Positions 3,076 to 53,500 of a stretch of DNA of 64,000 nt are shown here, piece after piece; the stretch's first letter is position 1; the number at the start of each line of letters is the position of its first letter. The stretch lies in assembly GCA_964035575.1 (NCBI GenBank), contig OZ037834.1:868001-932000 (forward strand), written 5' to 3'. This DNA comes from Rhynchopus sp. YZ270_cl-10 (lineage: Eukaryota). The translations under genes and the position numbers were made by a program. Under the pieces are notes generated by a model that made no database searches, had not been told where the DNA came from, and was given only the letters and a program-made list of their open reading frames with translations.

Positions 3076-4111
3076 ATGAAAAAAAGAAAAAGAAGAAAAA
3101 AACTCAACAAAGCTGAGCGTTGTTGTCCGCAGGGTACATTCTTTGCTTTCATCCAGACGGCTGGCAGCATACAGTGTCAGTCGGAGGCGCACCGCTGTGG
3201 CAACAACTACCCATGTTTTCCCCCATATTTTCCCAAAGGGCGCATTGTTGCACCCTCTCAAGATACTTTACATTCTCCTGAATGGAAAGCATCAAGAGAA
3301 TTTATTTCCTTTTTTGAAAAAACCCCCTTTTTTTTATAGCGAACCTCGGAACTGTTTTTTCTTGAAATTATTCTTTTCTTTGAAACAATTAGAAAAAAAA
3401 AAGATTGACTGTATCTGTAGAGAACGTCCTTTTTTGTACTTTCTCTTAGAAAGTATCTGAAACTATTTTTTTTCTTTTTTTTTTTTTCCCACAAAAAAAA
3501 ACAGTGGTACCTACCATAGTGTGAACTGCACCAAAAACTTTCTCTGTTATCATTATTACATAGTAATTGTCTGCGGGGGGATACGGTGGGACCAGGTGCT
3601 AAAAATGCTGTGATTCTCCCCATTTCAATTTGTTGGGCATTTGCACCTTTTGATCACTTGAGTTTTTCTTTTTGCCTTCCATGTTAACAGTGGTTCTGCG
3701 ACCAAAAACTCCACCAAAATTTGAAAGAAACAAACCACTTCTATACCGTAGTAGAAAATGAATTGCCGGCTCCATTTTTTTCTTGGAGCTTCCAGGGACC
3801 GTACATTGCTCCGTTCCATAAAGGAACGGTGAAAAAAAAAAGTTTTCAAATAACAGTACAGTGGAGATTTGCACAAAACTGTGGACAACACTACTGAGGC
3901 AACTACAGTACTCCAACATTTTTTTATCAAAAAATGAAAACAGAAGTCCTTGGGGATGGACGTTAAATGCATCCAGGGGTGGCAGCCTTTTTGTGGCACC
4001 TCCTGAACCCCCTACGAAGGTCTGAGAAAAGGACTTTTTGAGGGGTTAAAAGGGTGCTTATCCTCTACAAGGTGTGAAAAAGGCACACACCCCAGCCTGA
4101 TTGAACTAGGT

Positions 4112-4548
4112 ACCCCCTACGGTAGTGGCTGCATATGTGTCTACATAGACGCTTTTGGTGCATAAACACGCAGTATGTTAAGCAATTATCACAAATACAG
4201 CCACCATCAAGGCAGTGGTGGCTGCATCCGTGGTGCATACGCACATATGTACCCTAAAAGCACATACGCATGCAGCCACCACTGCCTTGATGGTAAACAT
4301 ACAAAAAAACATTTTCAAACCCCCTACGGTAGTGGCTGCATATGTGTCGAAGTACACGCTTTTGGTGCATAAACACGCAGTATGTTATGGCAGTTCTCAC
4401 AATACAGCCACCATCAAGGCAGTGGTGGCTGCATACGTATGTGCTTTTAGGGTACATATGTGCGTATGCACCACGGATGTAGCCACCGCTGCACTAATAG
4501 TGGCTGTATTTGTGATAATTGCTTAACATACGTGTGTATGCACCAAAA
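4112..4548. repeat. Nested direct and inverted repeat (foldback-like) built on GCAGTGGTGGCTGCAT
   Basis: ~4112-4225 is repeated at ~4321-4435; ~4160-4290 is the reverse complement of ~4405-4545. Confidence 0.7.
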
Positions 4549-4852: not shown

Positions 4853-4989
4853 TTCACCGTACACGACGGTGAAGTAAATGGCTTGACTTGTGGGGTTTAC
4901 TTTGTGGTTTCATCGTTATAAGTCAACGATGAAAACACAAAGTAAAACCACAAGTCAAAGTCATTTACTTCACCGTCGTGTACGGTGAA
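4853..4989. repeat. ~137-bp near-perfect hairpin (foldback/MITE-like)
   Basis: TTCACCGTACACGACGGTGAAGTAAATG... pairs with ...CATTTACTTCACCGTCGTGTACGGTGAA; a related half copy lies at ~40895-40950. Confidence 0.75.
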
Positions 4990-5492: not shown

Positions 5493-5564
5493 TGATGAAA
5501 ATATCTTTCAAGTTTTCCTCCCTCCTCCTCCTCCTCCTCCCTCCTCCTCCTCCTCCTCCTCCTC

Positions 5565-5863
5565 TACAGTAAACTTGTTTAAGAAGCTTTGCTTCGACTC
5601 AGGAGTCTTTCAAGATATAGAATGACTAATGCAGCATGCCCCTCATGGGCTTACCACTTACGGTTAGTAAGGTTGGAACGAGGATCGATGGGGAACCCAA
5701 AACACACAAAACACACAAACACACATTCACGAATCAGAATTTTGTCTTTTGCTTCCCCAGTATCGCCCTCTGTACGTACTCCTCTCCTCATCTACGGAAA
5801 AAAGAATCTCCCCCCGCCCCCCTTTTTTAGTTTACTTGTATACTCGTCTTTATCTTGTAAAGA
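5565..5863 (+). mobile_element. Solo terminal-repeat unit, subfamily 2, copy 1
   Basis: 299 bp flanked by (CCT)n. Its start TACAGTAAACTTGTTTAAGAAGCTTTGCTTCGAC resembles the YR-element repeat start CCAGTTAACTTGTTTAAAGCAGCTTTGCTGCGAC. Confidence 0.7.
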
Positions 5864-6049
5864 CTCCTCCTCCTCCTCCTCCTCCTCCTCCTCCTCCTCC
5901 TCCTCCTCCTCCTCCTCCTCCTCCTCCTCCTCCTCCTCCTCCTCCTCCTCCTCCTCCTCCTCCTCCTCCTCCTCCTCCTCCTCCTCCTCCTCCTCCTCCT
6001 CCTCCTCCTCCTCCTCCTCCTCCTCCTCCTCCTCCTCCTCCTCCTCCTC

Positions 6050-6348
6050 TACAGTAAACTTGTTTAAGAAGCTTTGCTTCGACTCAGGAGTCTTTCAAGA
6101 TATAGAATGACTAATGCAGCATGCCCCTCATGGGCTTACCACTTACGGTTAGTAAGGTTGGAACGAGGATCGATGGGGAACCCAAAACACACAAAACACA
6201 CAAACACACATTCACGAATCAGAATTTTGTCTTTTGCTTCCCCAGTATCGCCCTCTGTACGTACTCCTCTCCTCATCTACGGAAAAAAGAATCTCCCCCC
6301 GCCCCCCTTTTTTAGTTTACTTGTATACTCGTCTTTATCTTGTAAAGA
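6050..6348 (+). mobile_element. Solo terminal-repeat unit, subfamily 2, copy 2
   Basis: Essentially identical to 5565-5863 and flanked by (CCT)n. Confidence 0.7.
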
Positions 6349-6382
6349 CTCCTCCTCCTCCTCCTCCTCCTCCTCCTCCTCC

Positions 6383-6680
6383 CCAGTTAACTTGTTTAAA
6401 GCAGCTTTGCTGCGACATGGGGAGATCTGGTGTTTAGTATGAATAAAAATAAAAGCTTTGCCCCATTCATGTTTTTTGTTTTTTTACCACTTTGCATTGC
6501 AAAGGCTGGAAAGGCGAAGGAAAACACCACTCACCTTCATCAGGGAAAAATCTCTGTTTTCGGGTGGTCTCTTTTCCTTCCCTCGTACGTCACAATAAAG
6601 AAACCCCTTCCCTCGCATTTTTTCACGACATTGTTTTTGGGTTTGGGTAATGTTCACGGGCTATTCTCTATACACCAGAT
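6383..6680 (+). mobile_element. Solo A-B repeat of the adjacent YR retroelement (subfamily 1)
   Basis: Near-identical to A2-B2 (11432-11728) and flanked by CTCC/(CCT)n on both sides. Confidence 0.85.
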
Positions 6681-6989
6681 CTCCTCCTCCTCCTCCTCCT
6701 CCTCCTCCTCCTCCTCCTCCTCCTCCTCCTCCTCCTCCTCCTCCTCCTCCTCCTCCTCCCCAGTTAACTTGTTTAAAGCAGCTTTGCTGCGACATGGGGA
6801 GATCTGGTGTTTAGTATGAATAAAAATAAAAGCTTTGCCCCATTCATGTTTTTTGTTTTTTTTACCACTTTGCATTGCAAAGGCTGGAAAGGCGAAGGAA
6901 AACACCACTCACCTTCATCAGGGAAAAATCTCTGTTTTCGGGTGGTCTCTTTTCCTTCCCTCGTACGACACAAAAAAAAAAAAAAAAAA

Positions 6990-8042
6990 ATGGACATGAG
7001 CGAGTTCAAAAATGCACCTTCCAGAATGTTCTGGTTTAAGGTCAGCAACGTGTTGGGAGGGATGTGCAAGGAGGCACCAAACATCGTGAAGGAAAAATTG
7101 GGTTCGGTGAGTCTTCAGGGCAAGTTCGTGTGCGACACCCTGGAGGCTATCTCTTCTTCAGAGGTAGAGTCCTTGACTGTAGAGGCCCTGCGCGAGGTAA
7201 TCGGCGTGGTGACCCGATCGGAGCCTGAGAAGTGGGCGAACACGCCTCCGCGGAGGCTGGCGCTGTTCCTCACGGCAGTGCGGCGTGCAGTGGGAGAAGA
7301 GGCGTTTGAGGGGTTGCTGGCGGACGAGAACAGAGAGGCTTTTCCCTCGTCACCCGATGTAACCTCTCCACAGGCGGCCCACGACACGGAGGAGGAAGCT
7401 GTCGCTGCCGAAGTGTCGAGGAAGCGGTTCACTTTCGCTCCGCGGGCAGACGGGGGGCTACTGCCCGGCAGTGCGGGAGGCGGGGGCCCAGCAGCCGGCG
7501 ACACGTTGGATGCGCAGAGCTTTGGCGGAGGCAGCGACATCGGGGATGATGCGGATGATGCGGGTGTGGATGCGGACGATGTGACCCTGAACCACAAAAG
7601 GTGGCAGGAGTTGGATCGCATCCAGCAGGGTGACTTGCTCGCGAACCTCCGGGGGTACATCCCGACGAGGGACGGTGACGCGAAGGATGCCGCGCACGCT
7701 TCCTGGACACTGATCCAGAAGATCCTCAAGGGGAGGAGTATGGTTGATATCCTCGGTGACTCCTTGGACAACCTGCTCTTCTTCCACTACAGGTTTACCC
7801 TGGGAGTGGAGGCTGCTAAGGCTTTCCGGATGCGCGGCATAGTAGGGTCTACGACCACCCCGACACGCAGGCAGGCTATGCTGGCAGCCGTGGCGGCGAA
7901 CAACACGCACAAGGGCAAGCGATCCTACCAAGGAGGAGGAGGACGCCAGCAACAGAACAAACGCATGCGTTATGACCCGTCGGCGTCGTTCAACACGAAA
8001 GGAGCGGGCAAAGGCAAGAAAGGGGGAGAGAAGGGTTCCTAA
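6990..8042 (+). CDS. Gag-like ORF1 of the YR retroelement (350 aa)
   Basis: First ORF after A1 and a poly-A run, with a basic Gly-rich C-terminus. Assignment is positional; no diagnostic motif recognised. Confidence 0.65.
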   Translation: MDMSEFKNAPSRMFWFKVSNVLGGMCKEAPNIVKEKLGSVSLQGKFVCDTLEAISSSEVESLTVEALREVIGVVTRSEPEKWANTPPRRLALFLTAVRRAVGEEAFEGLLADENREAFPSSPDVTSPQAAHDTEEEAVAAEVSRKRFTFAPRADGGLLPGSAGGGGPAAGDTLDAQSFGGGSDIGDDADDAGVDADDVTLNHKRWQELDRIQQGDLLANLRGYIPTRDGDAKDAAHASWTLIQKILKGRSMVDILGDSLDNLLFFHYRFTLGVEAAKAFRMRGIVGSTTTPTRRQAMLAAVAANNTHKGKRSYQGGGGRQQQNKRMRYDPSASFNTKGAGKGKKGGEKGS

Positions 8043-9534
8043 CTCGGCAGCCTGCCCGAGGCCACCCCTGAACCAGACGAACTACCAGGCGGTGGGCCTT
8101 CGAGACATATGTCTCACAAAGAACAACTACAAGGCGGTGGGCCTTCGAGACGTATGTCTCACAAAGAACAACTACAAGGCAGTGGGCCTTCGAGACGTAT
8201 GTCTCACAAAGAACAACTACAAGGCGGTGGGCCTTCGAGACATATGTCTCACAAAGAACAACTACAAGGCAGTGGGCCTTCGAGACGGATGTCTCAAACA
8301 AACCAATTTCAATTCTCTCAATCAAAACAAGAGCCAAGCGGTGGGCTTTTCTCTCAATGCAAAAAGCAACAAGGCGGTGGGCCGTCGAGACGTATGTCTC
8401 AAACATACCAATTTCAATTCTCTCAATCAAAACGAGAACCAAGCGGTGGGCTTTTCTCTCAATGCAAAAAGCAACAAGGCGGGGGGCCTCCCAGAGGGCA
8501 GCCAGGAGATGCAAACTCCGATGACCCCTCCTCGAGTTTTTCCGCCGCCCTGCTTAGAGCCAGAAACGCTTGGAAAACAATTATCAAAAAAGAAAAAACT
8601 AGCCATCGAGAACAAGGTGTTTGCGGAGAGGGACGGAAAGTCGTTGGGATCGCTGATCCATCACTTGGTGCGCTGGGACGAGCTAGCACAATTTGCGAAG
8701 GCACCAAAAACGATGAGCGAGGAGGACCGGATCTGCACACGTTTTTCGGAGTGGAGGGCGAAGCAACACAGCGGAAGGCCGACGGACGAGCTGATAATAG
8801 AGTACGCCCACAGCATGTTAAATACGACAGCACCCAGCACGGCAAAGAAGTACATGGAGACGTTGGTGCGCGGAGCTCATCGAGAGGGCGTGAAAGGAGT
8901 ACGGACGCGTATGCTGCTGGACGCGAAGAAGGGACTCGCCAGACTGGGGACGATGATCCGTCCAAATCAAGCTCCGGCAATGTCAGCGGCAGATGCGAAG
9001 TCAGCTGTGGAGAAGTTGTGGGATCAGGGATGCAGACCGGCGGCAGCGTTGGCGGCGATCGCTTGGGTCTCTCGTGCACGGATACCCGATTTGAGGTACC
9101 TCACGAAACTGGACTGGAAAGAGTTTCCGTCCAAGACCCCCCAAAACTTGGAGACAGTAGGAGGAGAATTCTTTGCGCGGGAAAAGGGGTGCAAGACGTG
9201 GAAGCCACCGATCAACCTACCGCCGGGGAACATTACGGCGATTGCCGTACGGTTCATGCGCAGCGTAGCCGACGAGAAGGCGCTGGTGTTCGGGGGCTCC
9301 TCAGCCCTGTACGAGAGGTTGAAGCGCGAGCTGAAGAAGGTGTTCCCGCAGGCTTCGTGGCTTCACTCGATGAGACGAGGGGCCATACAGGAGGTGGAGA
9401 AGACAGGAGCGAAGAGGGGCGACTTGCGGGAGCTGTTGAGGCATGCGAGCGAGCAGGAGACGGTGCGATACCTGCGGACGAACACACTAGGGAGACGGAG
9501 GGAGGAAGCGAAGCTGCTGTCTTCGCTGCAATGA
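7972..9534 (+). CDS. Tyrosine recombinase (ORF2)
   Basis: Catalytic signature R (AWVSRARIPDLRYL), HxxR (HSMRRGA), H...Y (LLRHASEQETVRYL). The true start is uncertain. Confidence 0.9.
   Translation: MTRRRRSTRKERAKARKGERRVPNSAACPRPPLNQTNYQAVGLRDICLTKNNYKAVGLRDVCLTKNNYKAVGLRDVCLTKNNYKAVGLRDICLTKNNYKAVGLRDGCLKQTNFNSLNQNKSQAVGFSLNAKSNKAVGRRDVCLKHTNFNSLNQNENQAVGFSLNAKSNKAGGLPEGSQEMQTPMTPPRVFPPPCLEPETLGKQLSKKKKLAIENKVFAERDGKSLGSLIHHLVRWDELAQFAKAPKTMSEEDRICTRFSEWRAKQHSGRPTDELIIEYAHSMLNTTAPSTAKKYMETLVRGAHREGVKGVRTRMLLDAKKGLARLGTMIRPNQAPAMSAADAKSAVEKLWDQGCRPAAALAAIAWVSRARIPDLRYLTKLDWKEFPSKTPQNLETVGGEFFAREKGCKTWKPPINLPPGNITAIAVRFMRSVADEKALVFGGSSALYERLKRELKKVFPQASWLHSMRRGAIQEVEKTGAKRGDLRELLRHASEQETVRYLRTNTLGRRREEAKLLSSLQ
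8080..8490 (+). repeat. In-frame tandem repeats (45-bp x~5, then 105-bp x2) within the overlapping YR and RT frames
   Basis: AACTACAAGGCGGTGGGCCTTCGAGAC.TATGTCTCACAAAGAAC units read as NYKAVGLRDVCLTKN in one frame and GGGPSRRMSHKEQLQ in the other. Confidence 0.9.
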
Positions 9535-11216
9535 TTCGGGGGCTCCAGGAGGACTACGGCGATGAGGCGCACACCAATATCGAGGAATGGAACCCGCCAC
9601 AGTCAGGAGAATGCACTGGTTTGAGCCCGGATATGATGACACCACCTCCACGACAGGCAAAGCTCGACTCTTTCCCCCGAACGACGATATGCGTGGAGCG
9701 GATACGAATACTAGCAGAAGGCGCGGGCATGGACACGACGTTCACGAACTGGATGACGGATCCCAACGCGATTGATGCGGTGCGGAGTGGGTGCATCCCG
9801 TTGCCAGGCCCGAAATCCGACCTCCCACCCTCCTTCATTGCGGCGTGTGTAAGGGCAGGGGTCTGCAAAAAGGTAGGGAGAAACGAACGAGCTCGCGGAG
9901 TGGTGAAGGTATTCACGGTGCCTAAGTCGGACCCCACCGTTCATAGAACCATCATTGACGGCCGACCCATCAATAGAGTCACTCCTAAACCTCCAACGTT
10001 CCACCTCATATCACCCCCTCAGCTATACCACCTGCTTAAAAGAAAAGGCGCTAAGTGGGTAGCAAAAATTGATCTCAAAGGATTTTTTCATCAACTTCCC
10101 ATCCACGACGAAGTGTCCCTCTTCTTCTGTTTCCGCATAGGTCAGACTTGGTACCGGTGGACTCGGGTGCCTATGGGTTGGTCCGTTGCACCGTACATTG
10201 CGCAGAACACGGCTGAAGCGCTAATCGGGACCGCGCTGGGGGTGAGGGCAGTCGTGTACCTGGATGATATACTTCTTTTCGGGGAGACTTCCGCAACCGT
10301 GCAGACATTGTTGACAGAGATTTTGGAGCGTTTTCGTTTTGCCGGGGCGGAGCTGAACTTTGGCAAGTCAGTTCTGAAGCCAGTCTGCGCTCTGGAGTAC
10401 ATCGGTATTATTTGGCACCCGGAGCAGGGCGTGTTTTGTTTTCCGGACTTGTGGATTGCGAAGGTGGAGCACACGTGTGATAGGTTTGCGTCCGCACAGT
10501 CCATGTCGGTACGGACAATATGGCAGATGCTGGGTATTGGGGTTCGAGCCCTGTTCGTGTTAGGTACCCCGTTGTGCCATTACGATGCGATACTTGGTTG
10601 CCTCAGCGGCTGGTCTAGTCTGATTGCAAAGGGTGCGCTTGACTGGGACACGGTGGTGGATATTCCCGGTGAGCTGAAACGGGAAGTGACGCGTCTTGTC
10701 GATGACTTTGTGCGTCCAGGATGTCGATTCTCCCTGCCGGAACCTGCAACAGAATGGGACTCCGTGGTGTGGACGGATGCGTGCACGACGGGGTGGGGCG
10801 CAGTGTGGCAGCATCTGGAGGACGCCACAGCGAGAGCCGATTGGGGGCAGTGGAACTGTGCGGCCACACACAGACACATCTTTCTTCTTGAAGCGGAAGC
10901 GGCAGCAAAGGGCATAAGGGCGGTGCTTCATGAAGAAAAAACTGAGAAGGGGGTGTTGCTGTTGGTGGATAATAAGGGTTTGGCGGGCGCCATCAAACGC
11001 GGACATTCTAAGTCACGCTTGGGTAATTTCTTTTTACGCTATATTTTTTCGTTTGTGCAACCACACCACCTCCGTGTAGAATGGATTGCCTCGGAAGAGA
11101 ATCACACAGCAGACGAGCTCTCTCGACGCAAAAGTGACTCTGACGGCACTCTTACGGTCCCGCTGTGTTGGGATCGTGTTCACGAGAAGGTTGGTAGTTT
11201 TGGTTTTTCAGAGTGA
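8109..11216 (+). CDS. Reverse transcriptase / RNase H (ORF3); the conserved part lies downstream of ATG 9531
   Basis: RT motifs KIDLKGFFHQL, VPMGWSVAP and YLDD; DIRS-type RNase H motifs WTDACTTGWG, HIFLLEAEAA, LLVDN and WIASEENHTADELSR. Confidence 0.95.
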   Translation: MSHKEQLQGGGPSRRMSHKEQLQGSGPSRRMSHKEQLQGGGPSRHMSHKEQLQGSGPSRRMSQTNQFQFSQSKQEPSGGLFSQCKKQQGGGPSRRMSQTYQFQFSQSKREPSGGLFSQCKKQQGGGPPRGQPGDANSDDPSSSFSAALLRARNAWKTIIKKEKTSHREQGVCGEGRKVVGIADPSLGALGRASTICEGTKNDERGGPDLHTFFGVEGEATQRKADGRADNRVRPQHVKYDSTQHGKEVHGDVGARSSSRGRERSTDAYAAGREEGTRQTGDDDPSKSSSGNVSGRCEVSCGEVVGSGMQTGGSVGGDRLGLSCTDTRFEVPHETGLERVSVQDPPKLGDSRRRILCAGKGVQDVEATDQPTAGEHYGDCRTVHAQRSRREGAGVRGLLSPVREVEARAEEGVPAGFVASLDETRGHTGGGEDRSEEGRLAGAVEACERAGDGAIPADEHTRETEGGSEAAVFAAMIRGLQEDYGDEAHTNIEEWNPPQSGECTGLSPDMMTPPPRQAKLDSFPRTTICVERIRILAEGAGMDTTFTNWMTDPNAIDAVRSGCIPLPGPKSDLPPSFIAACVRAGVCKKVGRNERARGVVKVFTVPKSDPTVHRTIIDGRPINRVTPKPPTFHLISPPQLYHLLKRKGAKWVAKIDLKGFFHQLPIHDEVSLFFCFRIGQTWYRWTRVPMGWSVAPYIAQNTAEALIGTALGVRAVVYLDDILLFGETSATVQTLLTEILERFRFAGAELNFGKSVLKPVCALEYIGIIWHPEQGVFCFPDLWIAKVEHTCDRFASAQSMSVRTIWQMLGIGVRALFVLGTPLCHYDAILGCLSGWSSLIAKGALDWDTVVDIPGELKREVTRLVDDFVRPGCRFSLPEPATEWDSVVWTDACTTGWGAVWQHLEDATARADWGQWNCAATHRHIFLLEAEAAAKGIRAVLHEEKTEKGVLLLVDNKGLAGAIKRGHSKSRLGNFFLRYIFSFVQPHHLRVEWIASEENHTADELSRRKSDSDGTLTVPLCWDRVHEKVGSFGFSE

Positions 11217-13178
11217 TATGTTGTTGTTGTTGTTGATTTCTGTTTTTGCGTTGGGGAGGTGGTGTGATGGTACACGTCAGGGTGGATTTAATGGTCCAAA
11301 GCGGCATATGGTCTCTTTTCCTTCCCTCGTACGTCACAATAAAGAAACCCCTTCCCTCGCATTTTTTCACGACATTGTTTTTGGGTTTGGGTAATGTTCA
11401 CGGGCTATTCTCTATACACCAGATCTCCTCCCCAGTTAACTTGTTTAAAGCAGCTTTGCTGCGACATGGGGAGATCTGGTGTTTAGTATGAATAAAAATA
11501 AAAGCTTTGCCCCATTCATGTTTTTTGTTTTTTTACCACTTTGCATTGCAAAGGCTGGAAAGGCGAAGGAAAACACCACTCACCTTCATCAGGAAAAATC
11601 TCTGTTTTCGGGTGGTCTCTTTTCCTTCCCTCGTACGTCACAATAAAGAAACCCCTTCCCTCGCATTTTTTCACGACATTGTTTTTGGGTTTGGGTAATG
11701 TTCACGGGCTATTCTCTATACACCAGATCTCCTCCTCCTCCTCCTCCTCCTCCTCCTCCTCCTCCTCCTCCTCCTCCTCCTCCTCCTCCTCCTCCTCCTC
11801 CTCCTCCTCCTCCTCCTCCTCCTCCTCTGCCTCTCTCCTCCCTCCCCCTCTTTCCCTTCATCACCAGCACCTATCCACCCGCTTGGGATCGTATTGCATT
11901 TTTTTTCTTCAACGTCTTCGTTTTCCCCTCAGAGAGTAGTACCCTGGAGGGAGATCAGATTTAGCGAACTGATTTGTATGGGTTTTTGTGTGGGAGGGGA
12001 TGGGGGGGTTATTATGAAAATGTGTGCCTTATTGTCATCCGAGATGAGGAAAAGAATGCTGTGAAAAAAAAAGGCCGCAAATATTGTGGTCAAGAAGAAG
12101 GTGCGCTCTCACTCAAAAAAATGATTGTGTTCGCGCTTTCAACCAAAAAAAAGTTGCTCCTATATTTTTTGAAAACTTGGGTTGTGTTGCCAAGAGGGAA
12201 AAAAAAATCCCGCAAAAAAACGTTGGTGAGGCTGAAGGGAGGGGGGGGTGATTCGCACTTCTGGCGCACTTTCTTGCGCATTTTTTTTCACCCCATACCA
12301 AAAAAATTTCGAGGGCTGATTCGCACTTTTTGCGTCCCCCCTCCCATTCAACCACACTAACAGTGCTATCAAGTGTAGAACGTGGAAACAAGCTCCCGGA
12401 AAACAGGTGCGTGAGCCTCGGGTAACATGCAAAAAAAGGATGTGTAACCACAATGTGAGGCATAATCATCTCAGCCTTGATTTTGTTTTTCTTTTTAAAT
12501 ACTGCGTCGCTGCCGAGTCTTTTGGTTCTTCTTTTTGTACGTTTTTTTTGGATTTGTTCTGTTTTTTTTATTATCGATTTACGATAGTTTTACATTCTTC
12601 TCCCTCTGTGTGTTGTGTTGTTGTGTCTCTTATACGTTCGTAGACACGCTGCTATTGGATGTGCATGCAGACGTGGGTGCAGTTAATTTATGTTCAGTGC
12701 CAGGTGGTCGAACGTCCAACTTCTCCCTGTGTCGTGCCGGTGACGATTTAGAAAAAAAATAATATTCAGGCAAACAAAAAAAAAGAAGTGGAGCACACTC
12801 TAGTGTGGCTGCACATAACCAAGTTTTCAAAACAAAACAAAAAACATAACAGTACAGTAGAGTGATAGTATTCGAGTCATGGAATAAAAAAAAGACACCC
12901 CCGCGTTTTTTTTATCCCGAATTTAATCGGGTATTATTCGGAGAAACTCAAGGAATTTTTTTTGTTCAGCATTTTTTGTCTCGTCTCTGCCACATTCACC
13001 TAGTCAGGCTTCTGAGGTAGTGGGTTGCTTGCAGCATAATACAGCACAATATGTGCAATGCTTGGCTCTGGAACCATCCACATTTGCTTTCAAGCACATC
13101 ATATCACAGACGCAGGAATTACCCCCACAACTGATATCAAACACAAACACCCGACAGATTAAACATAACTCTACACAG

Positions 13179-14869: not shown

Positions 14870-15070
14870 CACGGGTTGCCTACGATCGTAGTACGATCTC
14901 TTACGATCGCAGCTCTTTTTTGATCGCACTACGATCGTACTACGATCAAAGTACGATCGTAGTACGATCGTACTTACGATCGTATTATGATCGTACGATC
15001 GTACTACGATCGTAACGATCGTAGTACGATCGTAATGATCGTAGTACGATCGTAGTACGATCGTACGATC
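14870..15070. repeat. CACGG terminus followed by a (TACGATCG/GTAC) palindromic array; probable end of a DNA transposon
   Basis: CACGGGTTGCC is followed by ~190 bp of TACGATCGTAG-type units. The adjacent 15095-15290 is the inverted homolog of ~27100-27290 and ~30830-31000. Confidence 0.65.
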
Positions 15071-24534: not shown

Positions 24535-27500
24535 CACGGATGCTGCCAGATCTGGCCAGATCTCCAGATCTGGGCCGCCCAGATCTGGCCAGATCTGGAA
24601 AAATTTTTTTTTTTTTTTGAAAAAAAAATTTTCCCAGACGTCCCAGATCTGGCCAGATCTGGCCAGATCTGGCCAAATCTGGGAGATCTGGGACGTCTGG
24701 GAAAATTTTTTTTTCCAGGTACCCCAATGACATAACGAAGTATCGCTTGAAGTACCGTTCAATATACGTTGCTCGTGTGTGCAAGTTACGAAGTAGGACA
24801 CACAAGGTATATCAAACGATAAATCAATCAGATAAACGTTACATCATCGGAAAATTGTTGGCACCGCCGCCCTGTCTTCGTATTTATTACGTCGACAGGC
24901 CAAACAGCGTTGGGCTCAGAAGAAGCAGTGCAAAACACTGGGGATCAACATGAGAACCAACTCCCAACAACACAGGCTACCGAAGTAGCAGGTGGGGTGT
25001 TGCGGGTGTTTGGGGTGAAAGAAAATCGATTTTGGTAAGTTCCAGCAGAAAATTCTTAAGTTTGCACAATTGAGAAGGGTGTTACCACTGCCTAATATTA
25101 TTCGTACATGTGAACCGGTAAGGTCGAGAAGGGTGGACACGGCATACAAGTACAAGTACAAGTAAGACGTACCTTCTACAAAGGCTGAATTCGCAATTCT
25201 TAAGGGATTGAATTCAGCCCCCACGTGGTGTTTTTGAGAAAATCATTCCATGGTATACAGCTAATGGTTCCCGAAGAATGATTCGCCCCTCCTCGTTCAT
25301 GCAAACTTAAGAAAATTCTGAAGTAACTACAACCTGGCGTGCGGGTACAGATGCATTGCTTTGTTCTTTCCTCAAAGTCATGTGTGATCTCTCGGGTCTG
25401 TACTAAAGTCAGTGTTTAGATAAGCATCCACTTGACTCGTTCTAACAACCGTTGAAATCTAGAACAAAACAATACACTGCCCCTTCTCACACCAAGCCGC
25501 CATGCTTCAAGAGCATGCCCTGGGCAAAAATTACTCTGACAAAAATTGGTTTTCTGGGGGAACGCAATATTTTCTTGTGCCTAGTCCTCCGCAAGCAGAG
25601 GACAGACTTTCCGGATCCCGAAGTCGAATTTCTTGCACTAGCTATGCTCCCTGGATTAAATGGCTATAGCAGTGACTGACTAAGAGTTTCATAATAATTA
25701 GGGTGGTCTATGGGGTGGGTTAATGGAAAAGTTGGTATATAAACCCGACTTTTACGATCGCCACCTGGTTTTCAAATAATTGCACCAGCTCTTCCATCGG
25801 CACTGCTTCGCTGTCACGATGAAGGGTCGTCGGTTCGGGTACCTGTTAAGAGAAATTGAATGTAAAAGTAGAGACTACAACAAAAAAACAAACAAACAAA
25901 CAAGAAGCCGCCCCGTACCCCTTAAACGTAAAAGTGACATTTTTGTTGACAAAAAAAAAAATAGCTAAAAAATAGCGGACATGTCGAAAAGGGAGAAAAC
26001 CGGGGGGTTAAAAACATACCTTGCACTCGGCCCACTCTCCAGGTACAAAGAACATCACTGCACGACAAACCCACTACTACGATAGAAAATAACTATTTTT
26101 TACCGAACAGAAAGGTCGTTTTATTGATGAGTGTTTTCTGAGTGCACACTCAGTGGGGACAAAATGCAACACTTACCGAAAAAATTCTCCAATCGGACAA
26201 AAACCTTTCTAAACACCCAAAAAAAACACCTCAGTCCACATCCGCTGGGGTCGCGAGATGGAAATATATGGTTTTACAGCTTTTGGGGGGTCTAGCGTGG
26301 GTCCCAGATGCATTTTGCAACGGGTCTGTGTGTGTGTGTGTGTGTGCCTCAACCGCTTCACAGTACCCTTTTTTGTAACTGAAAACGACGCATCCTGTAC
26401 CTAAGTGCACTGAAGCCTTGCTTGCGTCCTCCTTCGTGGTTTTGGGCGTTCGCATGCGAGAATCATTATCGCATTCGCACATGTAATTCTCGCATCACGG
26501 AGAGGATTTTAGCGTTACGTGACCACAAAAAAAGTGCACAAAATTAGTTTGGTCAAAAATCACCTTGCACTTGTGAAGGCATTGCTAAGGAAATGTGAAA
26601 TATGCGTGTTTTGGTACACAAAAGTGCGTTTTGGGTGGTTCTGAAGGGTCAAAACACCAAAAAAATGCGTTTTTTTGCATTTTTGGTCACCCAAGGACCC
26701 ACTATTTTGGTTGATATTTTTTTTTTCCCTTTGCGAAAAAGTACCCAAAAAGCACGGCTATAAAAACGCTAAGGAAAAATCGATATTCATTTTTTGGGCA
26801 GAGAAGTGCGTTTTAGGCGCCCACAGATGGTCAAAACATCAAAATTTTTGTGTTTTTGGCATCTTTGGACACCCAAGGACCCACTATCAGGGGTGAATTT
26901 TTTTTGCCTGAGATTTGCCTTTGCCAAAAATCGAAAAAAAAAATTATGAAGGAAATTGCTAAGAAAAAGTCGAAATTGTGGGCCCCTGTAGTGCATATGG
27001 CGGTACCCAGATCGTCAAAACACCCGACTCTTGCGTTTTTTTGCACTTTTTGGTGCACAAAAACCCTACTCAGGGGTCAAAATTTTCCCGGGAAAAAAAA
27101 ATTTTTTTTCGAGATTTTTCAAAAATCGACTTGTCTTTGGTAAAAACCACGAAATTTCGGGTGCGCGAAACCACGTTTTAGACCCCCACAGATGCTCAAA
27201 AGTGTCAAATTTTGCTTTTAACGGCCTCAAATCGTCGAAATTAGCCCTATATAGGGGCGAAAAAAAAAAATTCGAGAGTCCCTTTCCCTGGGAGACAATA
27301 GCCAGAAATCTGAGAAAAAAAAAAAAATGGCCAGATTTCCAGATCTGGCCAGATCTGGCCAGATCTGGCCAGATCTGGCCAGATCTGGGGTTTTTTTTTT
27401 TTTTTTGAAAAAAAAAATTTCCCAGATTCCCAGATCTGGCCAGATCTGGCCAGATCTGGCCAGATCTGGGGTTTTTTTTTTTTTTTTGAAAAAAAAAATT

Positions 27501-27621
27501 TCCCAGATTCCCAGATCTGGCCAGATCTGGCCAGATCTGGAAACAAGATCTCCACATCTGGAAAACGAGCCAGATCTGGGAAATTGGCCCCCAAATCTGG
27601 CCAGATCTGGCAGCATCCGTG
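24535..27621 (+). mobile_element. Non-autonomous DNA transposon: CACGG...CCGTG termini, (CAGATCTGGC)n subterminal arrays, 6-bp TSD
   Basis: TIRs CACGGATGCTGCCAGATCTGGCCAGAT; TAATTC at 24529-24534 and 27622-27627. It sits inside a smaller AGGTACCCTAAC...GTTAGGGTACCT element (~24498-27734). Confidence 0.8.
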
Positions 27622-28498: not shown

Positions 28499-31299
28499 CA
28501 CGGTGGCCCATTCCTACCCTTAGGGTAGGGTCCGCGGGGGGTACCCCATGGGGTACCCCCCAGACTACCCCATGGGGTACCCCCCAAATCTGAGGGGTAC
28601 CCCATGGGGTACCCCCCAGACTACCCCCGGGGGGTACCCCCGGTACAGGTACACAGGTACACAGGTACACAGGTACACAGGTACACAGGTACACAGGTAC
28701 ACAGGTACACAGGTACACAGGTACACAGGTACACAGGTACACAGGTACACAGGTACAGCCAGAGTGCCAGAGTCAAGGGTCCGCGCGGGGTCCGCCCCCC
28801 AATGACATAACGAAGTATCGCTTGAAAATACCGTTCAATATATGTTGCTTGGTGTGCATGAAGAAGGACACACAAGGTATATCAAACGATAAATCAATCA
28901 GATAAACGTTACATCATCGGAAAATTGTTGGCACCGCCCCCCTGTCTTCGTATTTATTACCCCGTCGACAGGCCAAACAGCGTTGGGCTCAGAAGAAGCA
29001 GTGCAAGACAGTCACTGGGGATCAACATGAGAACCAACTCCCAACAACACAGGCTACCGAAGTAGCAGGTGGGGTGTTGCGGGTGTTTGGGGTGAGAAAA
29101 TCGATTTTGGTAAGTTGCAGCAGAACATTCTTAAGTTCGCACTAGTCGAGAGAGGCTTACCCGCTGCAGTGAAGCAGTGCACCCATTTAAGGGTGGAGAA
29201 GCGTGACACGCACATACAAGTATGTACGTTACTTCAACAAAGGCTGAATTCTGGTAATTCTAAGGGATGTGAATTCAGCCACCACGCAGGTAGTGTTTTA
29301 AGGTTCCTCGCTTTGTGCTACACAGCGGACTCATGACACAAAGGAGTTGCCCCCGCTCTCTTTCGCGCAAACTTAAGAAAATTCTGGAGTCACTACAACC
29401 TGGCGTGCGGGTACAGATGCATTGCTTTGTTCTTTCCTCAAAGTCATGTGTGATCTCTCGGGTCTGTACTAAAGTCAGTGTTTAGATAAGCATCCACTTG
29501 ACTCGTTCTAACAACCGTTGAAATCTAGAACAAAACAATACACTGCCCCTTCTCACACCAAGCCGCCATGCTTCAAGAGCATGCCCTGGGCAAAAATTAC
29601 TGTGACAAAAATTGGTTTTCTGGGGGAACGCGATATTTTCTTGTGCCTACTGTAGTCCTCCGCAAGAGCAGAGGACAGACTTTCCGGATCCCGAAGTCGA
29701 ATTTTTTGCACTAGCTATGCTCCCTGGGTTAAATGGCTATAGCAGTGACTGACTAAGAGTTTCATAATAATTGGGGCGGTCTATGGGGTGGGTTAATGGA
29801 AAAATTGGTTTAAAAACCCAACTTTTGCGGTCCCCACCCGGTTTGCAATAATTGCACCAGCTCTTCCATCGGCACTGTTTCGCTGTCACGATGAAGGGTC
29901 GTCGGTTCGGGTACCTGTTGAGAGAAATTGAGTGCAAAAGTAGAGACTGCAACAAAAAAAATCAAACAAACAAACAAGAAGCCGCTCCGTACCTCTTCCA
30001 TGCAAAAAAGAAAGTAAAAGACTGCCCTTCCTCAGTCCGGAAGTAGCACCTCATCCGGTTCCCTGACGTAAAAGAGTTGTAGAGGTTACGAGATGCCATG
30101 ATAAAAAAGTAAAAGTGACAATTTTGACAATAAAAATATGCTTCGATTTACATCCGAGCGGGACAAAGGCGAAAAGGGGGAGCGGGGGGGTGTAAAAACC
30201 GGGGCTTAAAAACATACCTTGCAGCACTCGCTCGGCCTACTCTCCAGGTACGAGAACATCACTGCACGAACAATCCCACTGATACTGATACCTGCATTCT
30301 ATTTGTTGCCACATGGTAAAAATGACCAAAACTTCGACCAATTTTTTTTTTCTTCACAATTTGCTCATTGAGGCTTTGTATTTTTTGGGCCATTTATGAC
30401 CCACCACGCCCGATTTTGGGCGAGAAGAAAAAAAAATTTGGGTCAAAAATCGACGCGTCTTTGGTAAAATCACGACTTTTCGGGCGCGAAACCACGTTTT
30501 AGACCCCCACAGATGCTCAAAAGTGCCAAATTTTGCTTTTAATGGCCTCAAAGGATCACGGGAGCACCCCTCGTAATTACGAGGGCTCCCCACGCCGTGA
30601 CGTCGTCATTGCGCGCGTAATTTCCCACGTATGCGGGCGTGGTTGGTCATAAAATGGCCCAAAAACCCCAAACAAAACCTCAGATTGACCAAATCGAGGA
30701 AAAATTGTCAAGTCGAAATTTCAGCCAAAATACGGTCATTTTGGTTATACCCCGCGGTGTATGCAGTAGCTAGAACACGTACACAGCTAAGTTCCTAAGC
30801 GATTTCCTTCACATTTTTCATGAAAAATTGGTCAAAAATCGACTTGTCTTTGGTAAAAAAACCACGAAAAATCGGCTGCGCAAAACCACGTTTTAGACCC
30901 CCACAGATGCTCAAAAGTGCCAATTTTTGCTTTTAATGGCCTCAAATCGTCGAAATTAGGCCTATATAGGGCAAAAAAAAATTTTTGAGAGTCCCTTTCC
31001 CTGGGAGGCAATAGCCACCGGGTGTGCAGGGGGTACCCCGGGGGGTACCCCCCAGGGTCCGCGGGGGTACCCCATGGGGTACCCCCGCGGACCCTGGGGG
31101 GTACCCCTCGGGGTACCCCAAACCCCCCAAAGGGTACCCCGCGCGGACCCTACCCAACCCTGTGGGGTACCCCCTGGGGTAGCCCACGCGAGGGGGTACC
31201 CCCCGCGGACCCTACCCTGTGTGGTACCCTACCCTGCGGGGTACCCCTTTTGGGGGTACCCCCGGGGGTACCCCCAAAAGGGTCCGCTGGGCCACCGTG
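28499..31299 (+). mobile_element. Related non-autonomous DNA transposon: CACGGTGGCCCA termini, (GGGGTACCCC)n and (ACAGGTAC)n arrays
   Basis: 12-bp TIRs; internal ~28797-30300 is a direct homolog of ~24722-26100. No matching TSD seen. Confidence 0.7.
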
Positions 31300-47581: not shown

Positions 47582-50500
47582 ATGGACGATGGCTTCAGCA
47601 ATGCCGCCTCCCTGCAGGCTACCGGATGGGGGCGTGTTGTGTTCCGTGGTCCTGTTCACCGAGAAGCGTATCCTGAAGACCCGCTTGCGGCGACCAATGG
47701 AACGACACAGGGTGACGTGGAGATGGGGCTGCTTGCGGGGGATGGGCTGGGGTCGCAGCCAGATTCCCCTGGAGGGACCCAGCCGGGGGTGGCGGAAAAC
47801 AGCACAGCGGTGCTGACTGCGAGGGCGCCGAAGCCGAGGGAGTTTCCTGTATCCGCGCAGCAAGGGGGCGACTCGCTGCTGCGTGCGGTAGGTGCCGTGC
47901 GGCAGGAAGGGACATACTCCCGGTCCCTCTGCAACGCTACCCCCGTTTACTGCGATGTGCTCCGCAAAGATAGTCTTGGCAACGAAGACCCCGCCTGGTG
48001 TGCCTCAAATCGTCCTGGCGTGCCGGTTACTACTGACGCCCAGGGGAGACGGTTGGGAAAGGAGCAGGTTACGCAAAGGACAGAGCACGGTGTGAAGGCG
48101 ATTGTTCATGTGATCGGCCACGTGGATTTCAATCGAATGAAGTTTCGTGATGAAGGGGCGAAAAAGAAGGGCGCGTTGACGGAGGTGGATGACTGTCATT
48201 TGGTGCGGTTTTTGAAGAGGAGGAAGGAGAAGGAGAAGGAGGAGAAGGAGAAACGGCAGGAGGAGGACAAGGACGACGACGAGGACGACTCTTCGGAGGA
48301 GGAAGAGGTCAAGGCACAGAAGAAGCCGCCGCGGGGGCAGACCGACTTCATTGGTGACACTGATGTGTACGACGACAAACGCAAACGCATCGTCGACAAA
48401 CAAAAACACCACCTCGGGATGGACCTCACCGGGGAGGACGAATGCGACGAGCTCCACAACATCATCAACACCGGCCACGAGGACGGTGCCCTGCTCACCT
48501 CCGGCGAAGTAGCCAAGGTCATCCGCCAATACCTCACCCGCTCTGTGGTCGCAGCCGCACGCAACAAACACTGCTGCATCCTCACCACCGACACTGCAGA
48601 CATAAAAGGCGCACTCTCCCGCGGCGTCCAAGCAGCCGGTGTCCTCAAACACGGTGAATACCAAGACGGCCTGACAATAGGAGGCAGGGTCCCTGTTTTT
48701 GACGTCCAACCCATGCAGGTTCCGAAGGAGTTTCTCAGCCGGTGGTGTTCCCATCATATCCTGGTATCCCCAGGAAACACTAAGGCCCCGGCAGTAGACT
48801 TCAGCCCTGATGAGGGTGGCGCGCTCCTTGAAAGCGATGTGGGCACGTTAGAACAGCCTCCTGCTGAAGCATCTGCGCGGGATGTGACCGACACTGTCGT
48901 CAAGCTATTGGAGGCAGCATCAAAAGGAAGCCACGGCCTCGTAGAGCGGCCCCCAGCGAGGGTGGTTGGGGTGCTGGTCGGAGGGCATGTAAAGTCAACA
49001 CGGTTCGATATGCTACCTTACGTTCGCAACAGATGGCCGTTTCTCATCATAGAAGGGAGTGGAGGGTACGCCGATATGCTGGCCTCGATCATCACAAAGA
49101 TTGAATCAAGAGCTGGAGGGGTTGCATCGAAGGATGATTATCAAGCTTTGCTGTCAAATTATGACTCTTCCACTGCACAGGTGTTGTACGAAGGGAATTG
49201 GGTGTTAATTCGGAAAGGTACTGTACCGGAGGTGGTTACACGGATGTTGAGTCAGGCGATTTCTGGGGATGAAATTCTGACCAGGGCGTGGGAGTCGTAC
49301 GCAGCGTGGAACCAGCTGGCACGCAACAATGAGTTGCTTTACCGGAATCTGATGTTATGTATTCTTGTCTGCGGGATGCTTGCGACCGCGATATCGATCT
49401 TTCAAACCTTCCTGCAGCTCACCTTCCAAAACGAAACCGACGGCGAAGACGAATCCGGACAACGCAAATGGGCCGGTGGGCACAACACCATCTTTGCCCA
49501 CCTCCACTCCTCCCTCTCCATTGTCGTCGTGGTGCTCCCTATTACCATCTCCCTTCTCCAATCTATCACTAACCGGATCAACGCTGGAGCCAAATGGGTA
49601 TCACTAAAATCCTGCGCCGAAGGACTTCTCTCTGAAATCTATATGTATCGTACACGCTCCGGGGCATATTCGGAACACGAAATCAAAAAGGCCTACGAAA
49701 AACGGATGAAACTCAAACGCAGCAAAGAGCGTGAACAGAGTAATGGCACTGCAAGCGTAGTAGGCGATGAAGAAGGTGAAGGAGACGACGCAGACGGCCT
49801 AGCGGAGAACGCCCCTGTCTACGCAACACGCTCCGAACTTCTCCACGTCAAGCTCAACCAATACACCCAGGAGCTGGTCACGTCTGAAATGAGTGAGAAC
49901 AACATTCCCAAATACAGTGGTTGCATCCCTCCCAAGGAGGTAACACAATATGGGGACGACGGCTATTCTGACCTGACCATCCAAGCATACGCAGACCTCC
50001 GTCTCACACCAAAGATCAACGCATACAACGAAGACGCAGCGTTCTATGACCGCAGCAAGTCCCGCATTACCCTCACCATATACGGTTTTGGTGCGTTAGG
50101 CACAGCGCTTGCAGCGTTGGCCACCTTCGAAGCACTTCGTCCATACAACATAGGAGCCTGGGTAGCGCTAACCACCGCAGTAGGCAGTGCGTTAACCAGA
50201 TATCTGGATTATACGAAAAGTGAATGGCTGCACAACAAATACACGACAGTAATGCATGAATTGGAGAGTGTAGAGTCCTGGTGGTCGTCTCGAGGGAGCG
50301 ATGGGGCGAAAAGCGCGACAATGGACCAAATGGTGACGGCATGTGAAGATAAAATTACCGAAGAGATTTCTGAGTTTAAACAGCAGTTGAAAATCGCTGT
50401 GGCAGAGGCTGCTAAGGAGGCCGAAAAACAGGCAGAAGAACGGGCACAAATTCAAGAGAAGCTTCGAAAAGGTGAACAACCGGATTTGGTCAAAAAAATG

Positions 50501-53500
50501 GACTCTCTAGGCTTATCCCGCATCAACTCTGATGCTATTCTTGGTGCGCTTAAAGACCCTACCTCTTCTGATGCACGTAAACTCATTAAAACGCTTCAAC
50601 GAATCGACGATGAATTCGGTGGAGTCATCGATGAAGTAAAGGCCGCAGCGGAAGACTCTGCGCTAGGAAAAATCATTTCGACGCATATTCAGGACATTGC
50701 AGAGTACAAAAAATACATGGACGCTGCAGGGAATATCATCGAAAACGTTAAAGGGGCGGTCGAAGGGGGGATCCACCTGAACCCGTTAAACCTCGAAAAG
50801 CTTATACCTCATGATCTGATGGAGACTATAAAGGATACTACAAAGCGAAAAGGGTTTTTGAGCCATATTGACACAATCAGTAGGGTGTGTGACCCGTGGC
50901 AAATGTCGTACGGTGATATTCTTATTACTGCGAAGAAGTGTGGGCGGCATTTTCACAAACAGATCGGCGCGTTGCCGTATCGGGTGGCAATGGAAGGGGT
51001 GGCGAAACTGTGTTTTCAAGAGGTGTTTACGGAGTTTGAGGAGGCGTTGGACAAGCTGGGGCTTTCTGCATTAGATTTTGTTGAGTCGAGAGAGCAGTTG
51101 GACATATTCATTTCGGAAATCCGAAAACTTTCGGGGCTGCCAGCGAACATCAATCTCAAGGCGATTATGACAGCCTGCTCCATCCCTACCATCAAAACCG
51201 CGTTTCAAGGACTCAGTGAAGCAAAAGTCCGGTCCATTCTGAAGAGAGGGTCAAAATACTTCATAGAAAGCTCTCCGGCATTGGAGCTGCATAAAAGCAT
51301 TTCGGAGACCACTGCTGATATGGACCTCGACGTCGCCTTCGCAGACAACCACGAAGAACTGATTCAGACCCTCTGCAGAGCGTTTGAGCTGACTTCAGAC
51401 CTCCCAGCGCACTTTCTGGAAAAGGAGGAAATCGTTTCGGTCTTCCCAGACCGGGTTCGCGAGCAGTTTGCGGAAAAGAGTTTTATTTCATTAATTGCTG
51501 TTCTCTCCCGCCTTCAGAAGGGGACCATCGGGAAGAAATTTATGGACGCCTGGATTCGTGCCCCTATTGACCCCTCTGTTGCGATGGCTCATACTGGAGG
51601 GCTGGACATAGAAGAACCTAGGGAGCAACAGTCCTTCAGACGAGGCTCGACTGGGACGTGCAATACCTTTGCAACGTCGAAGAGTGCTGCTGGGAAGACG
51701 ATGCGGGGGTTGGGAGGAAAAGTGACCAGGTTGTCTCGGTTTTCGCAGTTGGAGGTGATGCTGCATTCGTTCCAGAATAGGTTGAAGTTGAGTCTGGCTG
51801 CAGAGAGGTTGAGTCAAATTGAGATTAATTCTTTGAGCAAATCGTCGCTTCTGAAGAAAATACGGAATATCATTGGCGCCGACCCTGCGTTAAATGAAGA
51901 GCTCCAAGTCTGCAACGATGCAGGCATCCGATTGGTCTTAAGCGGCGTGCGCTCTGCAGTGAGCAACAGCTATCCTGGACGGATCTTTGACATGCTTACC
52001 GACGAGCTGGTCTCCTTCGATGCAGGCATGATGTTCACCTGGGACGACAGAGAAAAGCTTATCAACCGCATGAAGGATTTCAAAGGCATCAACGTCAACA
52101 AAAAACCCGACGAATGGCTCCGTTCCATGCTTGGCTACAAATCGCTCATCGACCGCTGCCGCTGTCTCGACACACAACAACTCAAAGAGCTCATCATGCG
52201 GTTGCAAAGCCTTATGGGATCTACCTTCGGAAGGCGAGTATTTGACAAAAGCTTGGAACATCTCAACGCTTTAGACCAAGATAGCTATAAAGAAGCAGGG
52301 TTCATGTCGTGGAGAGACCAAATGGTTGACCGATTTGTGTCCACCTGTATGAACACCGATGAGGAGATGGTCGAAAAACCGTGCGACGATGCGGATGTGT
52401 TCCGGGAGTCAATGAATATGGACGAACAGATTATTCGGTTGACCGCGAATCTCTCGGTCCGCGAGCTTCGTACTGTGATCCTACAGATTAAAGAGCTGGC
52501 AGGTGAGCGCGTTGTGGCGAACATCTTTGAAGCTGCATCTAAAGAAATCAACTCGGAAGAAGTCTTCCACATCTTCGACAGTGCCTTTATGTTGCCCCCT
52601 ATTCGCCAACGTTTGATCATGTGTATGACAAATCTATTGATCAACCCACTAACGCAAAGGACATTACACCTTGCAGACATAGCAGCAGCCCTGCCCGATA
52701 AAACCTTGAAGAGATTGCAACAGAACGTTGTGTTGCCTGAAAAGCACCTAGTCTCGGACACGATTTTGTTGGATCCTGGTGTGGTGACTTCGGAAGGCCT
52801 CCGTTTTGACATTCTGGACTCCTGTTCGGACAACCTGAACCGCGCTTTAGTGGAGTCGCTGGTTAAGGTGTTCAAAGGCAAGGCGCGACTCGCAGAGGTA
52901 GTGGAGTTTTTGCTCGCAGAGATGAAGCTGACGGCAGGCTACCGGCTGTTCTTGCGTCTGTGCTCAGAGGTAACGTCGTTCTGTCTTCGGGAGATTGTGA
53001 AAAGCCCGCGGGCGCGGCAGGGGCTGTTCCCGGTGTTCTTAAAAATGGTGTGGTACAATCGGTTTGGGTTCAAACCTCGTGTGTTGAGTCGCAACTCCAC
53101 CGAGTACACCTTAGTGCAGGTGATGATACCAGGACCCGTAGGGGAGGACGGAACCTTTAAGCTGATCGAGGCAAAGCCAACGAAGGAAGTGATCATGGTG
53201 CTGCTGGAGGAGTTCTGCGAGGACTCGCATGAGGAGGTGGAGGAGTGTCTGATGCACTGCACGGCAGCGCAGCTGAAGGATGTGATTGGGTCCTTTTATA
53301 AGATTTTGACGAGCACGCATGTGGGCGTCTTTTTTCAGTTTTTGGAACGTTCGGTGATTTTAGGATCAACGAGGAAGCTGAAGGGCCTGCACAACGCTGA
53401 CCCTGAGCTGAAAAGGCGGCGGATCCTTGAGGACGAAAGGGAGAAGCGGCTGCGCAACGAGGGGATTGTGTACGTGAAGCATTCGCTGCGGCTGTCCTCG

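Follow-up and report, generated by a model that had tools for sequence, protein, structure and literature searches.

The described systems closest to the element analysed here are retrotransposons with a gene for a tyrosine recombinase (YR). VIPER and SIRE, as far as the consulted part of their description goes (PMC6681497), share with it the gene order gag-YR-reverse transcriptase/RNase H (RT/RH), overlapping ORF2 and ORF3, split repeats arranged as A1...B1-A2-B2, and solo A-B units, SIRE being equal to A2 plus B2. The YR motifs are alike by eye, HSMRRGA and TVRYL in our element against HSIKRGA and TVRYL in T. cruzi VIPER, whereas the RT motif is YLDD in the former and WIDN in VIPER (PMC6681497). 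Ngaro and PAT, in the descriptions drawn upon (PMC9210276, PMC3266345), have the same repeat layout and gene set, but the present element is devoid of an SGNH hydrolase or methyltransferase ORF, and no junction hairpin was found in those descriptions. DIRS-1 resembles it in having an internal stretch complementary to an element end, the internal complementary region (ICR), and single-stranded intermediates are reported from the same order of elements; the DIRS-1 ICR, however, extends over the two ends (33 + 55 nt) on either side of a 3-nt junction and goes with inverted termini (PMC7192593, PMC3266345), whereas the complement described below covers 13-16 bp of one end, lies inside a direct repeat and tolerates bulges. 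On the priming and integration of YR retrotransposons, the accessible portion of the DIRS-1 cycle study reports no primer and no data on recombinase specificity, and the double-stranded circle assumed by the model could not be amplified (PMC7192593). According to the excerpts available for bacterial systems, folded attC sites have as their parts an outer stem, a spacer that stays unpaired and an inner stem (PMC2727003), folded attC is known to insert with little homology (10.1101/2022.09.11.507474), a 3'-phosphotyrosine is left behind by tyrosine recombinases (PMC5357621), and the exchange of one strand on a folded single-strand substrate has been shown for attC and for the CTX phage (PMC2727003, PMC5357621). 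Within the portions of the literature searched (PMC6681497, PMC7192593, PMC9210276, PMC3266345, PMC5814959), a search that left the founding papers outside its range, no description of a junction hairpin in a split-repeat YR element was found.

The stretch of DNA analysed, hereafter the window, comprises 64,000 nucleotides of the Rhynchopus sp. YZ270_cl-10 contig OZ037834.1 (positions 868,001 to 932,000), and all repeats, ORFs and stem arms given below lie on its plus strand. Segment 6757-11732 (4,976 bp) is a VIPER/Ngaro-type split-repeat YR retrotransposon, ordinary for its kind and VIPER-like in layout and motifs, made of A1, three ORFs, B1, A2 and B2 with near-identical repeats; its ends are direct repeats and not the inverted terminal repeats of a DIRS1-like element. 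A1 (6757-6967), the left end, differs from A2 by two 1-nt indels; B1 (11309-11428) is identical to B2 and has its first 25 nt in common with the end of A; and A2-B2 (11429-11732) forms the right end, adjoined downstream by (CTC)n. ORF1 (6990-8042) is gag-like by position only, with no match in Pfam. ORF3 (8109-11216), which overlaps ORF2 in a different frame, is a reverse transcriptase (RVT_1, E 1e-21) labelled RNase H from motifs in the alignment only. In a quick tree built on neither a named VIPER nor a named Ngaro reference, the RT clade of the window (10 rows, SH-aLRT 98) was sister (90) to a clade with diplonemid proteins; the nearest named RTs are diplonemid, and RT neighbours in a protein atlas, judged on three members per cluster, are mostly from Euglenozoa; the clusters matched by host proteins contain no named members. 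Within the element, a 45-nt tandem repeat present five times, followed by a longer duplication, occupies 8030-8312; these repeats are open in the recombinase and RT frames, and the third frame has stop-free stretches. The overlap between A and B (25 nt; 11309-11333 and 6943-6967) extends to about 30 nt in subfamily 2, as judged from loose contig ends at 6245 and 6275; it is a pyrimidine-rich block conserved in the copy at 54 kb and could be a strand-transfer site.

ORF2 (7972-9534) holds the complete catalytic set of a tyrosine recombinase in the expected order (R147, H242-x-x-R245, H268 and Y277, numbered from 8641), with 95 amino acids from R to H. Pfam and PDB sequence searches gave no match for ORF2, and its predicted model (mean pLDDT 52) matched Cre, Xer and Int folds with a best E of 2e-4, Cre ranking first. 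This low-confidence model reached Z scores of up to 6.9 with TopIB and Xer, with lambda-type recombinases also among the first matches, and it ranked IntI below Cre; in the same model, residues 21-265 of IntI covered residues 23-240, and residues 21-242 of XerD covered residues 20-240. Neither the spacing nor the low-confidence model gave any sign in ORF2 of the I2 insertion of integron integrases.

The internal B1|A2 junction reads ACACCAGAT-CTCCTC-CCCA (AGATCTCCTCCCCAG in the window text), which is 3 nt longer than the B end-CTCC-CCA given by an earlier, sequence-only reading of this DNA. To place the crossover, use was made of a diverged solo A-B copy (54195-54489; 77% identical) that is inserted in a CCCTCTGCA minisatellite. 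Excision of this copy at CTCC|TC restores a perfect 9-bp unit, and its two ends then equal the internal junction exactly; a crossover one base further left fits the flanks at 54 kb equally well, and no other position does. Together with loose contig ends, these flanks put the crossover of the full element between C11428 and T11429. Left ends were found at T11429 (X3 and X5, as a two-record consensus) and at T6048 (X1), and a right end at C6352 (X5), the flank evidence amounting to a handful of contigs, some of them as two-record consensus. At 54 kb the base at +1 is A, and in X5 it is C; X3, X5 and X1 have A or T at -1. The element itself has C|T. Target duplication is absent, and the bases flanking the crossover need not match. 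CTCC was considered as a target duplication and rejected, as it breaks the 9-bp period of the minisatellite at 54 kb and fails to rebuild the internal junction.

The last 13 nt of B1 (11416-11428), ending at the crossover, are the exact reverse complement of 11470-11482 inside A2, and the two form the arms of an outer stem. The 3' arm extends to 11468 (11468-11482), with 11469 pairing with T+1 (G.T in the full element, A-T in subfamily 2) and 11468 with C+2. The complement begins 39-41 nt into A, and not about 35 nt as first estimated, the spacing between the arms being likewise 39-41 nt. It had been described as the complement of B end, core and A start together: the 13-bp match to the B end is exact, but the A start pairs only by way of a 3-nt bulge (CCA/TGG), and in subfamily 2 a single A base pairs. 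As background, a 13-mer whose complement lies no more than 60 nt away occurs at 188 of 63,927 window positions, mostly in unrelated palindromic arrays. Folding of 11405-11495 gave z scores of -6.8 as RNA and -7.0 as DNA, with none of 200 shuffles folding equally well, and the signal was mostly lost when the B end was left out (11429-11495; z -1.1 as RNA, -2.4 as DNA). Pairing reaches one base past the crossover in both subfamilies and two in subfamily 1, and then opens; in all three families of the window an in-register stem runs to the crossover and 1-2 nt beyond. Because it ends one base past the crossover, the shared-register stem covers the right end only. Pairing beyond the 13-bp core was not above chance in subfamily 1 and the 54-kb copy (out of 1000 shuffles, 249 and 253 with RNA parameters and 397 and 373 with DNA). 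Subfamily 1 also has a competing register with a 3-nt bulge, often the minimum-energy fold, that pairs 5-6 nt of the A start; the pair probability at -1 in subfamily 1 is only 0.18 as DNA and 0.43 as RNA. Twelve contigs, drawn from all four public runs, track the window sequence to 11483, one base beyond the stem, and then diverge; all of them may belong to the 54-kb family. One further contig (depth 9) that skips 11426-11472, the interior of the hairpin, is a possible artefact and was left out of the evidence.

The outer stem encloses a spacer, two mini-hairpins (H1 and H2) and a second spacer. The first spacer (11431-11435) is unpaired in the shared register and contains CAG in all six A copies of the window. 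In H1 (11436-11448; TWAA-CTTG-TTWA), which the earlier reading did not mention, one pair is compensated when the 54-kb copy is compared with subfamily 2. The full element has an extra T in H1 at 11444, which is missing in 37-69% of contig depth in four of four runs. H2 (11450-11462; GCAGC-TTT-GCTGC) becomes GAAGC-TTT-GCTTC in subfamily 2, so that the covariation already remarked upon for this small hairpin comes down to one double-sided change. The mean pair probability of H1 was 0.32-0.63 as DNA and 0.01-0.17 as RNA, and H2 of subfamily 2, on the plus strand, reached about 0.9 with DNA parameters against 0.31 with RNA. With RNA parameters H1 hardly forms and H2 is missing from the minimum-energy fold of subfamily 2; the mini-hairpins are thus predicted more consistently by DNA than by RNA parameters.

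Solo A-B units allowed these helices to be compared between lineages. Besides the diverged copy at 54 kb, the window holds three of them, a subfamily 1 unit (6380-6684) with 99.7% identity to A2-B2, and two subfamily 2 units (5563-5867 and 6048-6352) identical to each other. Both subfamilies occur at high depth in contigs of the public runs, and loose contig ends hint at a separate full-length partner for subfamily 2; the B1|A2 junction of this subfamily was put together from its two ends, no contig joint being listed. The proposal that both partners change together in subfamily 2 was borne out: 16 of the last 17 B nucleotides pair, with one bulged T, and DNA duplexes of own-family arms (-18.0 and -15.6 kcal/mol) are far stronger than those across families (-5.6 and -5.9 kcal/mol). 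This covariation comes from two independent lineages within the window. Likewise, the diverged copy does keep both features while its middle drifts, with 52 of the first 54 nt and 13 of the last 13 conserved against 168 of 237 between them (Fisher p 9e-7); since unpaired positions are conserved as well, this speaks for constraint and not for structure as such. The view, put forward at the outset, that the junction stretch is under selection for a fold is supported by three helices with compensated changes and by a register that keeps to the crossover. That the stem end stays at the crossover though the sequence of the arm has been replaced points, in addition, to something acting at the crossover bond.

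A single (CTC)n tract (5520-6760 and 11733-11827) holds a stack of four insertions from the two subfamilies. Further flanks at loose contig ends consist of pyrimidine-rich repeats such as (TTC)n and (CTCCAC)n, so that the element targets microsatellites. The proposal that the covarying arm helps to specify the target is not supported, given that the two subfamilies occupy one and the same (CTC)n tract and share the CTCC|TC junction.

The junction stem is not peculiar to the element of the window. In VIPER sequences (PMC6681497, supplement file 1, in the part covered), judged by eye with G.T allowed, a stem ends at or next to the boundary in three of the four readable junctions, T. cruzi included. 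In T. cruzi VIPER, GATTATTCT pairs by eye with AGAATGATC over 9 bp around a 14-nt loop, with 11 further pairs outside, and, among the matches listed (PMC6681497, file 12), all six right ends with flank stop on the last T of the stem. The same entries show T. cruzi right ends extending 5-6 nt (TATTCT) past the published boundary, into pyrimidine-rich flanks (PMC6681497, file 12). Two C. fasciculata VIPER families in this supplement have stems of 8 and 9 bp that end on the same T or one base before it, the stem at a third C. fasciculata junction is weak, and the B. saltans junction falls in a run of N; the non-standard pairs of VIPER stems are T.G on the plus strand. Compared to VIPER, the present element has its arms further apart (an insert of 39-41 nt that includes two mini-hairpins), and its targets are (CTC)n and C-rich.

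More distant relatives were sought by RT clade. Viral scans and a first metagenome scan yielded no closer relative with DNA context, one of the DNA patterns used matching three of the six window copies. The distant scan gave 15 metagenome loci, four with a junction (L002, L009, L011 and L012) and 11 without a whole one, of which L003, L004 and L006 gave the A start only. With the boundary taken as the leftmost possible crossover only, L002 and L011 showed, by script and as DNA, a stem ending at +2 and, within it, a 5-nt spacer and a short hairpin; L009 had seven pairs in that register and a different minimum-energy fold, and in L012 the boundary is undefined. These AT-rich stems are singly weak (DNA z of +0.5 for L002, +1.3 for L009, -1.1 for L011 and -2.9 for L012), and 4.5-25% of positions near the relatives' junctions score equally well. 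In-register folding was seen in two of four metagenomic junctions, only one of the two stems reaching even marginal significance, and the distant relatives support the stem-end pattern no more than modestly. In L004 a hairpin with a CTTG loop occurs at the offset of H1, and neither L002 nor L011 has an AG just inside A. By eye, another hairpin of this distant clade, GC-rich and with arms that vary, is contained entirely in B, just upstream of the junction, at L001:4100-4157, L002:4580-4615 and L009:4615-4650.

Of the four roles first proposed for the structure (splint, priming, attC-like site and target choice), an attC-like single-stranded site fits best. The reading that we favour, at a probability of about 0.45, is that the recombinase would cut the junction as a folded site in plus-strand DNA, in the way of integron attC. 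Accordingly worded as a model, the junction, as a single plus strand, would fold into a stem ending one base past the crossover; the recombinase would bind the folded B-end arm and cut at CTCC|TC; a single strand exchange would join the element to pyrimidine-rich chromosomal DNA; and replication or repair would resolve the product. The sequences show how the element is laid out, that its arms are complementary and change in a compensated way, and where the crossover lies; folding in vivo, as DNA rather than RNA, the use of the plus strand and the single-exchange route are what we infer. The cut in attC lies one base before the end of the outer stem. The same stem end point recurs without sequence likeness in VIPER, L002 and L011, and the succession of outer stem, unpaired spacer and inner stem is the geometry of a folded attC. 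A 6-8 bp double-stranded core is usual for tyrosine recombinases; here the arm spacing is loose (39-41 nt, with a common 1-nt indel), target duplication is absent and no base is fixed on either side of the crossover. These features favour folded DNA, as do the more consistent prediction of the mini-hairpins as DNA and the YR fold and catalytic set of ORF2. Since the recombinase would leave a 3'-phosphotyrosine, and the cutting subunit of tyrosine recombinases occupies the arm 5' of the cut, the plus strand would be the substrate.

The likeness to attC and to the folded attP of CTX, which in the excerpts used (PMC2727003, PMC5357621, PMC7790495) comprises a tyrosine recombinase, an outer stem, spacer and inner structure conserved in shape and not in sequence, and little target homology, is one that we infer at the level of working alike only. 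The RYYYAAC and GTTRRRY boxes (GTT/AAC) of attC (PMC2727003, as excerpted) are absent at the crossover of the element, CTCC|TC. Unlike attC, the element has a branched inner part in place of an L stem with extrahelical bases, and its context is that of a eukaryotic retroelement. Several findings weigh against folded DNA: energies pick no strand (-20.0 against -19.6 and -15.7 against -15.8 for the two strands as DNA, barely separated), the few plus-favouring G.T pairs fit RNA equally, subfamily 1 has its competing 3-nt-bulge register, ORF2 is without sign of I2 and the relatives' stems are singly weak. The I2 insertion enables integron integrases to use single strands; CTX integrates through ordinary XerC. 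We know of no source of free plus-strand DNA for the element. In the available part of the DIRS-1 study, moreover, the single-stranded cDNA is the antisense strand (PMC7192593), which weighs against a plus-strand DNA substrate.

The main rival, itself somewhat unlikely, places the fold in element RNA, where RT or Gag would start or transfer minus-strand synthesis at the exact end, or where it would set or hide an RNA processing site, in which case the conserved CAG at +5 to +7 could be involved if the host trans-splices. The few G.T pairs favour the plus strand, to which element RNA corresponds (the VIPER stems being judged by eye), the RNA of the 54-kb family folds strongly and with a plus bias (-39.7 against -34.3 kcal/mol), priming would call for a signal whose stem stops at the last base of the element, the nearest named RTs are those of diplonemids, and the primer of DIRS-1 is not known from the portion of the study available (PMC7192593). 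Fold-back priming from the B2 end onto A, however, would by our reasoning copy A-ORFs-B only and lose A2-B2, and the A1...B1-A2-B2 layout is nevertheless kept in the window element and in VIPER. H1 hardly forming and H2 being lost from the subfamily 2 minimum-energy RNA fold also count against an RNA role, as does the want of an AG just inside A in L002 and L011. No Rfam family matches the junction either, the four matches obtained (E 1-4) being all far under threshold and none of them at 11405-11495.

Improbable, in our estimate, is that the arms are inverted binding sites on double-stranded DNA, whether in a cruciform or as a core arm with an accessory arm some four helical turns away, the pairing being a by-product of both arms being read by one protein. 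An arm of 13 bp is typical of tyrosine recombinases, Cre came first in the fold search with the ORF2 model, and an altered protein specificity would change both arms together; but the spacing is 39-41 nt here and far shorter in relatives, two additional short helices carry compensated changes, and no 6-8 bp overlap is held in common with the targets. The standing DIRS model, in the parts of its accounts at hand, assumes a double-stranded circle (PMC7192593, PMC3266345), in agreement with duplex arms. Least probable is an ICR-like splint or template that would hold both linear cDNA ends, or rewrite the B end, for circle closure: the ICR is essential in DIRS-1 as far as the study was available (PMC7192593), the alternative register of subfamily 1 pairs 5-6 nt of the A start and solo A-B units have no internal junction to copy, but the shared register covers the right end and 1-2 nt of the left end only, contrary to the splint first suggested, subfamily 2 pairs one A base, in the subfamily 1 register 3 nt are looped out where the ends join, templated copying would erase the subfamily 2 bulge and the G.T pairs of VIPER and L011, and in full elements the junction is already internal.

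Tentatively, and at rather less than even odds, the attC-like reading may be extended to split-repeat YR retrotransposons at large, T. cruzi VIPER/SIRE included, which would insert via a folded single-stranded junction whose shape, not sequence, sets the cut. Such insertion would be the eukaryotic counterpart, of independent evolutionary origin, to attC recombination in integrons, carried out by a Cre-like enzyme without the I2 helix, and gene-less A-B units could then move on their own. New here are the base-level link between stem end and crossover, the natural swap between two subfamilies, and the extension to VIPER. A stem end that tracks the crossover across unrelated sequences offers a short, defined substrate for a direct test of single- versus double-stranded integration, with the two natural subfamilies as ready-made swap controls. 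The abundant SIRE of T. cruzi would gain a structural signal, and such a stem could point to an enzyme for homology-poor DNA insertion.

Other features of the window were recorded alongside. Gene-less palindromic units at 4100-4540 and 4853-4989, with inverted arms of 122 and 65 nt, are MITE-like. Short-palindrome arrays (TACGATCG, CCAGATCTGG and GGGGTACCCC) and an 8-mer tandem array occupy 14880-15070, 24550-24710, 27320-27600, 28520-28760 and 31030-31120; all these arrays lie amid long inverted repeats (15.1/27.1/30.9 kb; 21.7/24.3 kb), and are probably the ends of other mobile elements. Finally, an ORF of 2064 amino acids at 47582-53776 has SLATT/DUF4231 matches and weak SLOG (TRPM-type) matches.
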